A stretch of DNA of 64,000 nt from Candidatus Bathyarchaeota archaeon. GTDB lineage: Archaea > Thermoproteota > Bathyarchaeia > Bathyarchaeales > Bathycorpusculaceae. The DNA is taken from contig OY970280.1 of NCBI GenBank assembly GCA_963715865.1, positions 1,472,001 to 1,536,000 on the forward strand, given 5' to 3'. Positions 46,394-53,567 of this stretch are shown here, piece by piece. Numbering within the stretch: position 1 is the stretch's first letter; the number at the start of each line of letters is the position of its first letter. A program made the translations under genes and the position numbers. Below the pieces are notes generated by a model. It saw only the letters and a program-made list of their open reading frames with translations, was not told the origin of the DNA and made no database searches.

Positions 46394-47393
46394 CTATTTT
46401 CCAGAAAGAATCAATGTGTAAGGGTCGTCGGCAACCTGTGGAAAAGGCGCTTCTTTTCCCGTTTTAATTAGAACGCGTTCTTTATTTTCCGTGAATTCAC
46501 CCAAAAAGCAGGCCGAAAGTCCGTTCTTGCTCAATGTGGCTTTGACTTTTTCTTGAGCTTGAGCATCAACCGCCGCCAAGATTGTGCCTGTTGAAGACAT
46601 CGCCAACACCTGATTATCATTAAACTTAAAGTAATCTTGCAAAGCTAACATTTCCTTGCAAACCGGTATTTTTTCCCAATTCACCCTAAAGCCCACTTTT
46701 GATGCTTCAGCCAACTCGTTTAGCGCTGCTACGAATCCTCCTTCTGTAGCATCATGCATGGCATGGACACCGCTTATTTCAGCCAGTTGCAAGGCTTCCT
46801 TTACGCAACTTTGCATGCGAACCTGATTAGAAAGTTTTTCTTGCTGCTCAGCTCCGAAGAGTTTTTGCGCTAGCGCCTTGTGAGTTAACGAGAAATTTGT
46901 GATTGTTTCTAAACCAAGCGGCTTAGTGCATAATATTAGGTCTCCTGGCTTAGCGTTTCCGGGCGTAATCAACTTTTCTGGTTGTACCGATTCCATAAAC
47001 AGTTGCGACGCCAAGCAAATCTGAAAGGCTATCATACATGCCTGTGTGTCCTCGAACGATAGCTATGTCCAATTCGTCTGCTGCCTCGCATGTTTGCTTC
47101 ATTATTTTTTGGAAAGTTGCTGGTTTAGTTGATTTTGGTCCCAAGAGGTTAATGGTGCAGAATTCTGGTTTGGCTCCGGATAGCGCAACGTCTGAAGCTG
47201 CGTAATTGATTAGTAGCCAACCGAACCATTCTTCTGGGACGCCAGTGCATGGGTCAGTCGCTACTACTACGTACTTGCCATCTAAGAGGTGAACGCCTGA
47301 ATCGTAGCCAACCATGGGCGGAATAATAACTCGCGAATCCTTCTTTATGCAGCTTAAGAGCGTCTTCAGTTCTTTGTTAGGTAGTTTTCCCAT
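46394..47393 (-). CDS. PurM-like/AIR synthase-related protein (HypE/ThiL superfamily), split by a one-base insertion near 46987
   Basis: MGKLP, GYDSGV, ATDP, NYAASDVA, VRGHT; second frame LCTKPLGLE, HAMHDATEGG; frames join as GIVQPEKLITP after deleting one base. Confidence 0.8.
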
Positions 47394-47406: not shown

Positions 47407-47964
47407 TTACATGTAAATGTTTAGTGTCTTGCTTTTTTGCAGTAGGAAAATTGCAAATGCACAGATTATAATGCTTGGCACCATGTAGATTGCGTTATAT
47501 GATGCGGAGTAAACGACTGGGCTCATACCTGCTGGTGCGTACTGGGGAAAATAGATGACACCTGAAACGAAGTGAGATATGAAACGGCCTGTCCCACCAA
47601 CAACGACGCCGACAACCGGGCCAACAACTTTAAGTTTTCGGAAGAACCCGGCAAGTCCAAGGCAAGCGAACGCCAATGGATAATCAAGGATAAATTGAGC
47701 AGGATTAACAACGAAAGGCTCAATCGCAAGGTCAACCACGCCAAGCACGGCGCCTGCAAATATGCCTATTTTTGGTCCTCTTCTAAGCGCCAGCCAAAAG
47801 ATAGGCACCATCCCAAGGTTAATTGAGCCCCCTTGAGGCAGGCTGAAGAAGGAGTGGCTAACCAGAGCTAATGCTCCTGCCATTGCAACAAATACAATTA
47901 TTTCTGCAAGTATCTTGGTTGAGAAAATATTATTATTTTTAGTCGGTTCAGTTTGATGTTTCAC
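47407..47964 (-). CDS. thiT: ECF transporter S-component for thiamine
   Basis: PQGGSINLGMVP, QFILDY, HFVSGVIYF..YAP.G...YS..YN; TPP riboswitch directly upstream. Confidence 0.9.
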   Translation of the reverse strand: MKHQTEPTKNNNIFSTKILAEIIVFVAMAGALALVSHSFFSLPQGGSINLGMVPIFWLALRRGPKIGIFAGAVLGVVDLAIEPFVVNPAQFILDYPLAFACLGLAGFFRKLKVVGPVVGVVVGGTGRFISHFVSGVIYFPQYAPAGMSPVVYSASYNAIYMVPSIIICAFAIFLLQKSKTLNIYM

Positions 47965-47970
47965 TTTTTT

Positions 47971-48061
47971 TCCCTCCGCCAGTATTATCTGGTTCAGGTT
48001 CTAAGGGTCGACAGCACATTAGCCGTCCTCTCAGCCGGGTCATTTTCCCAGCTCCCCGAGA
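47971..48061 (-). ncRNA. TPP riboswitch
   Basis: Minus strand reads TCTCGGGGAGC...GGCTGAGAGG...GACCCTTAGAACCTGAACCAGATAATACTGGCGGAGGGA, carrying the CUGAGA, ACCUGA, AUAAU and 3' GGGA hallmarks. Confidence 0.92.
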
Positions 48062-48129
48062 CCTTATTGATGGGATAATGTTTTTAGGTTATATTTTAGT
48101 TTTCCTACCGTCAACAATAACGAGTAGGA

Positions 48130-50602
48130 TTGATTAACATGCAGCCTATGCCTAAAGAATACAACTTTGCAGAAATAGAACGAAAATGGCAGCAGAAATG
48201 GGAAGAAATGGGTATCTACCATTACGACTGGAACGACAAAAAACGCGTTCCCTACAGCATAGACACTCCACCGCCCTATCCGTCAGGCGAATTGCACATG
48301 GGCAACGTTTTGAACTGGACCTACTTTGACATGGTAGCACGATACAAACGCATGCAAGGCTTCAACGTGCTCTTCCCGCAAGGCTGGGACTGCCATGGCT
48401 TAGGCATAGAAATCCAAGTTGAAAAAACACATAACATACGCAAACGTGACGTTCCGCCAGACCAGTTCCGCAAGTGGTGCATGGAGCTGGTGGAAAAATA
48501 CATTGCCATGATGAAAGAAGGCATTCTCAAGCTGGGCTGCAGCATAGATTGGACAACAGAGTACCGCACAATGGATCCAGATTACTGGAGACGCACGCAA
48601 TTAAGCTTCATTTTGCTCTACAAAAAAGGCTACATGTACCAGGGCACGCACCCAGTGAACTGGTGCCCCAGAGACGAAACCGCCATCGCGGATGCTGAAG
48701 TAGATTATCAGAAACGCGAAGGCATACTGCATTACATCCGTTTCCCATTCGAGGGCACAGGCGAGTACGCGTTAATCGCAACTTCCAGACCAGAGTTTAT
48801 TCCTGCATGCGTCGCCATCGAAGTCAATCCCAAATGACGAGCGATACAGCAAGTACGTTGGCAAAAAAATCGTTGTACCAATAGTCAACCGTTCCGTGAC
48901 GGTCATCGCTGACGAATGCGTTGATCCCGCCTTTGGCACTGGAGTAGTCATGATATGCACCTACGGCGACAAAGAAGACGTTAAAACAGTCATCAAGCAC
49001 AAGCTTCCCGTCATAATGCTTCTCACCGAAAATGGACGCATTAACGAGAACGGCGGCAAATACGCTGGCTTAACAATAAACCAAGCACGAGCAGCCATAG
49101 TTGAAGACCTCACGGCAGCTGGGTTGCTTGAGAAAACCGAGAAAATCATGCAGGAAGTAGGCGTTTGTGACCGCTGCAAGACTCACGTGGAAATCCTTGA
49201 GCGAAAACAATGGTTCATGAACACCCGCAAATTAACCGACGCCGTAGAAAAGACAGCGAACGAGATAGCTTGGTATCCTGATTACATGAAAAACCGCTTA
49301 ATCGACTGGGCAAAATCGCTCGATTGGGACTGGGTAATAAGCCGCCAACGTCTTTTTGCCACACCGATTCCAGTTTGGTACTGCAAAAACTGCGGCGAGC
49401 TAATCCTAGCCGAAGAGGACTGGGTTCCAATAGACCCAAAACTGGAGAACCCACGCATAAACAAGTGCCCAAAATGCGGCGGCAAAGAGTTCACTGGCGA
49501 ACAAGACGTTTTCGACACCTGGATGGATTCATCAATAACATGCGCTGTTCATGCTGGCTGGCCTGACAGGGCAGATTGGAAGCATCTTTTCCCAGCGGAC
49601 GTTCATCCCTCAGGCACCGATATAATCAGGACTTGGGCGTATTACTTGATGGTTCGGCACTTGGCGCTTTTTGATGAGAAGCCGTTCAAGAGTTGTCTTA
49701 TCAACGGCATGGTTCTAGGTTCTGATGGCAGAAAGATGAGCAAATCGCTGAAGAATTATGCTGCTGCGCCTGAAGTGCTAAACAAGAACGGAGCCGATGC
49801 TACTCGCCAATGGGCCGCTGGTGGTGGAGCAACAGGCTCCGACATTCCGTATCGTGCTCAGGATGTGGAGTATGGCAGGCGTTTCTTGGTTAAGTTGTGG
49901 AATGTTTCAGGTTTCACGAGTAAACTCTTAGCTGACTATGAGCCTAGTGTACAGGCTGATTTGGAGCTTCAGCCGCTAGACAAGTGGATTATTAGCAAAG
50001 CCGAAAACTTAACAAAAAAGGTGACCGAGGCTTTTGAAAAATGCCAGTTTAACATTGCTGTTGAAGATATCCGAAATTTCACATGGCACGTTTTCTGCGA
50101 CTATTACGTTGAAGCAGTGAAAGATAGGCTTTACAATCCTGACTTGCATGGTCAAGCGAAACGGTTGGCAGCTCAGTACACACTCTACGAGGTTCTCTAC
50201 CGCGTGTTGCAGTTGCTGGCGCCTGTTACTCCACATTTGACTGAAGAAATTTACCAGCACATGTTTGCAGAAAACAAGGGCTTTGAAAGCTTGCAGATTT
50301 CGCCCTGGCCCCAGTTCAATTCGGCACTTGTGAATGAAGAAGCAGAGAAGAACGGTGACTTGATTATTGCTGTTATCAGCGAAGTGCGGCATGATAAGGC
50401 AGAGAAGAAGTTGCCTCTTAATGCGCCAGTTAAAAACTTAATCATTTACGCTGGCAGTGATGAGAACGCGAAAGTTATCCATTCAGGCAGCGCAGACATT
50501 GCTGGAACCTTAAAGGTTGCAAACATCCAAGTTCTCCCTGAAAAGCGGTCTGAAGGACGTCAAGTCAGTCCTTATGACGTTTACATCAGAGCGGAATATT
50601 AA
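48130..50602 (+). CDS. valS: Valine--tRNA ligase, split by a one-base insertion at 48832-48834
   Basis: DTPPP, HMGN, GWDCHG, DWVISRQR, KMSKS; removing one A gives NPNDERY. Confidence 0.93.
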
Positions 50603-53492: not shown

Positions 53493-53567
53493 GGGTCCGT
53501 AGCTCAGTCAGGCTAGAGCACCGGACTTTTAATCCGGGGGTCGCGGGTTCAATTCCCGTCGGACCCG
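53493..53567 (+). tRNA. tRNA-Lys(TTT), no intron, CCA not encoded
   Basis: Acceptor GGGTCCG/CGGACCC, anticodon arm CCGGA-CTTTTAA-TCCGG, T-arm GCGGG-TTCAATT-CCCGT. Confidence 0.95.

Follow-up and report, generated by a model that had tools for sequence, protein, structure and literature searches.

In the 64,000-nucleotide stretch of a Candidatus Bathyarchaeota genome analysed here (contig OY970280.1, positions 1,472,001 to 1,536,000; hereafter the window), a spacer of 183 nt separates valS on the plus strand from an ORF of 185 amino acids on the minus strand, raising the question of whether this interval carries an RNA switch and how such a switch would act on the gene behind it. The initial annotation had read a complete TPP aptamer on the minus strand of this spacer, and had proposed a check against the corresponding Rfam family. 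Both hold: a cmscan of the window returned a significant match to RF00059 (TPP) at 47954-48068 on the minus strand, covering the full model (1-105) with 61.2 bits (E value 1.5e-9) against a gathering score of 54.3 bits. Across the 2.35-Mb genome this is the only TPP match. By its setting too the element belongs with RF00059, since aptamer and leader lie in the spacer directly 5' of the minus-strand ORF, which is thiT, a thiamine transport gene. That the match is more than chance follows from the recurrence of the same element in 34 of 36 genomes of the window's genus, together with the covariation of its helices. The only other Rfam match in the window is a tRNA gene at 53493-53567 on the plus strand (72.6 bits), whose anticodon loop CUUUUAA suggests tRNA-Lys(UUU).

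The aptamer core spans 47971-48057 on the minus strand, as delimited by the RF00059 score and by helix covariation in 85 Bathyarchaeia sequences. P2 is formed by GGG (48057-48055) with CCC (48007-48005) and P2b by 48052-48047 with 48039-48034; J3/2, CUGAGA (48034-48029), then leads into the P3 hairpin GACGGC/UAAUGU/GCUGUC (48027-48010; helix 48027-48022 with 48015-48010). What had been taken for an extra hairpin is the ordinary P3 arm, and CUGAGA, first described as a loop, is in fact a junction. On the other arm, J2/4 (48004-47999) is followed by the ACCUGA motif (47999-47994), P4 pairs CCU (47998-47996) with AGG (47975-47973), P5 pairs 47992-47989 with 47982-47979 around the L5 loop AUAAUA (47988-47983), and GA (47972-47971) closes the core. 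The ligand-contact motifs CUGAGA, ACCUGA, GCG...AGGGA and the UAAU of L5 all occupy their aligned RF00059 positions, with a single mismatch to the consensus in these motifs, an A instead of U at 47993 in the J4/5 bulge. This mismatch, and the fact that the organism imports thiamine without known kinases, could indicate an aptamer that works but responds to a different thiamine-related molecule, be it thiamine, TMP or a precursor. However, the pyrophosphate-arm motifs GCG, AGGGA and ACCUGA are intact, A or C is also found at the same bulge position in bacterial thiT aptamers, and we know of no variant TPP class defined by a U-to-A change in J4/5. We regard such retuning as extremely improbable; as judged from its motifs, the window aptamer would bind TPP.

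In the 85-sequence alignment, pairing reaches 98.6% in P2b, 96.6% in P3 and 100% in P5, with compensatory changes at three, five and one pairs, respectively, and P4 (CCU/AGG) is invariant in all 85 sequences. None of 500 column shuffles matched the observed covariation, and sliding the helix registers dropped pairing to 36-55%. At the level of the class, TPP aptamers were found in 107 of 151 Bathyarchaeia genomes of at least 80% completeness (~71%), representing 48 of 76 genera and up to four copies per genome. A phylum-wide sample gave 31 of 151, and 21 of these 31 matches belong to four families absent from the class-level sample. The survey of thiT leaders suggested at the outset was also carried out, and an aptamer lies immediately upstream at all 41 assessable Bathyarchaeia loci (40 recognised by pattern, the remaining one differing by one substitution in the core; two further contigs were excluded as too short). 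The claim that archaeal riboswitches are rare thus stands for the literature, where surveys count very few and describe archaea as using them sparingly (PMC5473149), and falls for today's genomes, given the class-level count above. At the level of sequence, the element is confirmed as a genuine and conserved TPP riboswitch upstream of thiT, with the Shine-Dalgarno (SD) sequence inside its aptamer.

Several other families of Bathyarchaeia (loci L115, L122, L123, L118, L129, L137, L116 and L133) have TPP aptamers with a strong P1 of 5-7 bp. In these, either the 3' strand of P1 includes the start codon or a GGGAUG resembling an SD, or a longer GC-rich leader follows; no ORF of at least 80 amino acids starts within ~70 nt downstream of these aptamers, and some of the genomes have two to four copies.

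How the window element would reach the ribosome can be read from its 3' end. As initially annotated, GGAGG (47977-47973) sits in the 3' part of the aptamer, 8 nt before the GTG start codon of thiT; the GCG bulge contributes its last G and P4 its 3' strand, and an A-rich spacer (47972-47965) separates it from the GTG at 47964-47962. The 16S rRNA has the 3' end GGAUCACCUCCU, terminating in CCUCCU and thereby providing the anti-SD CCUCC. When occurrences of GGAGG ahead of long ORFs were counted by spacer length over the whole genome, spacers of 6, 7, 8, 9 and 10 nt numbered 9, 22, 16, 23 and 20, other lengths giving 1-3, and the 8 nt found before thiT fall in the middle of this peak. The genome-wide spacing peaks of GGUGA and AGGAG fit the registers expected for one anti-SD. 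The otherwise variable base before AGGGA is G, giving GGAGG, in 64 of 86 Bathyarchaeia aptamers, compared with one of 13 bacterial thiT aptamers, and 47 of those 64 have, 4-12 nt 3' of GGAGG, a start codon that opens at least 100 amino acids. Relatives use ATG, GTG or TTG at the equivalent place, 6-12 nt after GGAGG.

Some related loci depart from this pattern. In three, none of the codons ATG, GTG and TTG follows GGAGG at the expected position (L024 has ACG there, L056 and L059 an AUA-type codon), and L009, L015 and L025 lose the thiT reading frame before codon 20 is passed. Either non-canonical starts or A-run indel errors could account for such cases.

From the aptamer to the first 250 nt of the transcript we saw neither a terminator-like hairpin nor a run of at least five T, and no separate expression platform or sequestor hairpin was found downstream of the aptamer. 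These results bear on the possibility that the aptamer senses TPP but acts mainly on the transcript and less on initiation, through premature termination by the archaeal polymerase or ligand-dependent mRNA decay. Archaeal termination signals are simple T-runs, a TTTT does occur at 47927-47924, ~40 nt into the ORF, and the characterised thiT riboswitch of L. lactis (RSthiT) requires a stretch of U immediately before the start codon, which its authors regard as a possible intrinsic terminator (PMC8862789). Control of the transcript would, however, leave the conserved GGAGG at SD spacing unexplained, and the tail that follows the aptamer is A-rich in all relatives. Together with the missing hairpin and longer T-run, this speaks against such a reading, which we consider unlikely.

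Direct translation attenuation, in contrast, accounts for the ribosome-binding site in the aptamer core, the start codon close behind it and the lack of a terminator or sequestor. This class was described in 2007 by Barrick and Breaker, who noted that the purine-rich 3' region of the TPP aptamer replaces the ribosome-binding site (PMC2258182). The layout being that of their class, the mechanism proposed in the initial annotation, a translational OFF switch by occlusion of the SD, is therefore one already known. It is also the mechanism best supported here, by the anti-SD, the spacing peak and the lack of a terminator or platform. Against it counts the thermodynamic model, in which P4 forms even without ligand, with the AGG of the SD ~50-70% paired. 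On balance, it is likely that a TPP riboswitch of the direct translation attenuation type controls an operon of thiT and a PurM-like gene in this thiamine-auxotrophic member of Bathyarchaeia; the OFF logic of the window switch would follow the same scheme.

Upstream of the aptamer, sequence reading places a BRE-like GGAAAAC at 48105-48099 and a TATA-like TAAAATAT at 48098-48091 on the minus strand. Most of 58 related loci show an A-rich or TATA-like box 35-43 nt upstream of their GGGAGC anchor, and in GC-richer families it is the only AT-rich octamer that stands out. From the usual archaeal TATA-to-TSS distance, the thiT transcript would start at about 48065-48068, and the leader before P2 would therefore be only ~8-11 nt long. 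The covariation of the helices at the RNA level implies that the aptamer is transcribed, and hence that the promoter lies upstream of it. We also asked whether L5 AUAAUA (47988-47983) could be a TATA box inside the element, giving rise to a leaderless thiT transcript; this is unlikely, as it has no BRE, its distance is off by ~5 nt and the aptamer is transcribed. The AT-rich TATA-like box (48089-48105) between the divergent thiT and valS is near-palindromic and might serve both directions.

The P1 pairing first proposed, UCUC (48061-48058) with GGGA (47974-47971), would take G47974 and G47973 from P4 and is rejected because it is incompatible with that invariant helix, whose AGG strand it would use. 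Nor do the sequences support it: the two segments pair in 68.8% of cases over 85 sequences with only one-sided C/U variation, and the leader-SD duplex is no better than with shuffled leaders (z +0.17). In the canonical Rfam register the window has GGUCU facing AAAAA, with 0-1 standard pairs, and shifting this register by 0-2 nt yields at most one or two A-U pairs in the window and in most of the genus; the RF00059 cut-off was passed despite the missing P1. By eye, the leader has no long-range partner in the first 60 nt of the ORF. The unconstrained minimum-energy fold of a longer RNA pairs UCCC (48075-48072) with GGGA, and was set aside because UCCC lies upstream of the predicted TSS; the RNA was refolded from 48068.

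This loss is particular to the window's genus, where P1 measures 0-2 bp and the tail is an A-run. The other families of Bathyarchaeia, and the other genera of the window's own family, keep a P1 of 4-10 bp, which in many cases extends up to or over the start codon. Over the class the P1 columns are 53.9% paired, with compensatory changes only in lineages outside the genus (85 sequences). The near absence of a canonical P1, a helix that normally belongs to the aptamer, could weaken ligand binding, and such a contrast is what one would expect if the genus switch were a decaying relic, in which TPP binding is no longer useful and the purine tract serves as a constitutive ribosome-binding site. Yet all the ligand-contact motifs and every other helix are kept across the 36 species of the genus, compensatory changes continue in P2b, P3 and P5, contrary to what a relic would show, and an SD alone needs 5 nt and not a conserved fold of 90 nt. 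Decay to a relic is, in our judgement, very unlikely.

A candidate anti-sequestor is the 5' leader itself, AAGGUCUC (48058-48065, minus strand), which occupies the position of the P1 5' strand and has no partner in the tail. Within the genus it is kept as AAGGUCUC, AGUUCUY or AGGUAAUUC, each of them complementary to GAACCU, the invariant sequence of J2/4 and the P4 5' strand; the window leader can pair with AGAACCU (48002-47996). Over 57 thiT-type sequences, which are mutually related, the duplex of the leader with J2/4 and the P4 5' strand has a mean dG of -4.3 kcal/mol (z -1.28 against shuffled leaders), compared with z values of about +0.2 for the leader-tail and leader-SD duplexes in the same 57. 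When the window RNA is folded from 48068, forbidding the pairing of GGAGG costs 0.1 kcal/mol. With shuffled leaders the cost rises to 3.6 +/- 1.1 kcal/mol, and one shuffle in 40 was as cheap as the window. The SD-free fold is this cheap because AGGUCU (48064-48059) takes over AG-ACCU (48002-47996). Among the 57 relatives, which are not independent, the mean cost is 1.9 kcal/mol, against 3.6 with a shuffled leader, and the SD-free fold puts the leader on the CCU strand in 39 of them. Two-sided covariation of the leader is impossible because its target strand is invariant, and inspection by eye showed no correlation of the leader sequence with the variable triplet of J2/4.

These folding models suggest, tentatively and at somewhat less than an even chance, that P1 has decayed in the genus and that the leader (AGGUCU/GUUC) pairs with AGAACCU in the ligand-free RNA, so that it would serve as an anti-sequestor and release the SD. 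More doubtful is the fuller proposal that the genus switch, having lost P1, has become a minimal two-state device in which the leader and GGAGG compete for the CCU strand of P4, the platform being the ~8 nt upstream of the aptamer. If this were true, a P1-less two-state layout would be a TPP-switch design that the literature we searched does not describe.

Mechanistically, translation attenuation at this locus would proceed as follows. Transcription from the archaeal BRE/TATA promoter would begin ~10 nt before P2, so the whole 5' UTR would consist of the aptamer, with the GTG 8 nt past an SD formed by the P4 3' strand and the neighbouring G of the pyrophosphate-sensing bulge. With TPP plentiful, the ligand would bridge the P2/P3 and P4/P5 arms and lock P4; with the SD held in this helix and out of reach, the importer would be translated less. 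With TPP scarce, the weak 3-bp P4 would open and a 30S subunit could bind. The leader may add a further step, in that leader and SD would compete for the P4 5' strand and TPP would select the SD-paired state.

The regulated gene (47407-47964, minus strand) encodes ThiT, the 185-amino-acid S component of an ECF transporter for thiamine, with matches to PF09515 (E value 3e-46) and to the TIGR02357 equivalog (147.1 bits, cut-off 108.45). The genome, 97.9% complete and in one contig, has two EcfT genes (PF02361; 124 and 112 bits). Searched for B1 genes, it contained no ThiC and no thiamine pyrophosphokinase (TPK), only a sub-threshold 22-bit fragment of ThiE, and only Rossmann-motif fragments for Thi4. 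The lack of ThiC and TPK, the sub-threshold ThiE and the two EcfT genes together point to import as the source of B1. From its gene content, the organism thus looks auxotrophic for B1 and dependent on ThiT, a situation in which one TPP switch, placed on the importer, makes sense.

Second in the operon is a PurM/AIR-synthase-like gene (46394-47393, minus strand; PF00586 and PF02769 on two overlapping ORFs). In this assembly it is frameshifted after codon 147, around 46950-46990, and it is intact over more than 310 amino acids in four close relatives. It follows thiT directly in 27 of 60 related loci, nearly all of them from the window's genus, and its product scores far below the cut-offs for ThiL, SelD and HypE, which leaves it as an unassigned enzyme of the PurM family, predicted to be under the control of TPP. 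This co-regulated gene may encode the missing thiamine kinase.

The assembly has indel errors near the thiT locus; the A-run spacer between SD and start codon is identical, and of the same length, in an independent assembly (locus L031). Across the spacer, valS (valine-tRNA ligase; 48130-50602, plus strand) is split into ORFs at 48130-48837 and 48896-50602 by a one-base frame change near the CCC/AAA runs at ~48830-48840, after which the reading goes on in frame +1. Because the gene is essential, an assembly indel is the most likely cause. Its true start is probably the ATG at 48148 (MPKEYNFAEIE...).

As to the origin of the system, the reading of the host as a member of Bathyarchaeia proved correct: the nearest ThiT loci come from Candidatus Bathyarchaeia/Bathyarchaeota MAGs, and the 16S rRNA fits the archaeal SSU model. 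In a homologue search with a single protein as query, these nearest loci were from peat, bog and soil MAGs, the best being 97% identical in a peat MAG; outside the archaea, the closest proteins were those of Synergistaceae (38-49% identity) and of Bacillota/Clostridia (~37-44%). A quick maximum-likelihood tree, the phylogeny that had been suggested, groups 47 Bathyarchaeia ThiT proteins in one clan with deep internal divergence (SH-aLRT 91), and the bacterial sister of this clan is a polytomy. Identity of the window aptamer to the bacterial thiT aptamers ranges over 55-68% and singles out none of them, and most forks of the aptamer tree (98 columns) are without resolution. These data are compatible both with a single, old origin of thiT within the class and with an ancient transfer; they demonstrate neither a Firmicutes donor nor a transfer of the switch together with the gene. 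Three contigs with a typical riboswitch-thiT locus of Bathyarchaeia are from records labelled Candidatus Acidoferrum (L016/L032), Limnocylindrales (L050) and Methanocella (L049); the tree places their ThiT proteins within the window's genus, and they are probably mis-binned or mislabelled MAG contigs.

Known TPP switches help to place the element. The thiM riboswitch of E. coli, whose structure is known, acts on translation. The window element resembles it in the TPP-dependent hiding of the SD and in helices P2-P5; thiM, however, has a stable P1 and a separate anti-SD/anti-anti-SD platform downstream of the aptamer, whereas in the window the SD lies inside P4 and the sole candidate switching strand is the 5' leader. 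TPP riboswitches of Thermoplasmatales were reportedly described by Rodionov et al. in 2002 (a study cited in PMC5473149) and likewise lie, in an archaeon, upstream of thiamine-related transporter genes. The window element differs from them in its phylum (Thermoproteota, Bathyarchaeia) and in a far higher prevalence, ~71% of the class sample. Among the closest bacterial homologues (Synergistaceae, Bacillota), thiT leaders carry a true P1 and, wherever the sequence could be read, a hairpin or U-tract platform apart from the aptamer, with its own SD; the window element, in contrast, has virtually no P1 and no separate platform, and its SD is inside the aptamer.

RSthiT of L. lactis also places an ECF ThiT gene under the same aptamer family, but the archaeal element lacks a terminator and abuts the start codon (PMC8862789). 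The TPP class of Barrick and Breaker shares with it the aptamer family, a start codon a few nucleotides downstream and the lack of a separate platform (PMC2258182). The window element differs from that class in its occurrence in Bathyarchaeia with a BRE/TATA promoter, in the variable base before AGGGA, here fixed as G to give a perfect GGAGG, and in the virtual absence of P1 in the genus. The SD-in-aptamer design and its mechanism are thus already known; bacteria have this design, and in Bathyarchaeia it is the norm. Less documented are the prevalence of such switches in this class, the loss of P1 in the genus, and experiments on archaeal TPP switches, of which there were none as of 2021, when a paper named the fluoride switch of Thermococcus as the only validated natural archaeal riboswitch (PMC8241225). 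In the literature searched, no paper dealt with riboswitches of Bathyarchaeota/Bathyarchaeia, and none with TPP switches of archaea.

With promoter, leader of ~10 nt, SD-containing aptamer and start codon following one another, the element is very compact, and it therefore lends itself well to tests of SD-dependent control of translation in archaea; such a switch may also provide a ligand-controlled part for archaeal genetics. The presence of TPP switches in about 71% of the sampled genomes of the class and at every assessable thiT locus indicates that RNA-based sensing of B1 is routine in the physiology of Bathyarchaeia, an abundant, uncultured lineage of sediment and peat, in agreement with the B1 auxotrophy seen in the genome analysed here.
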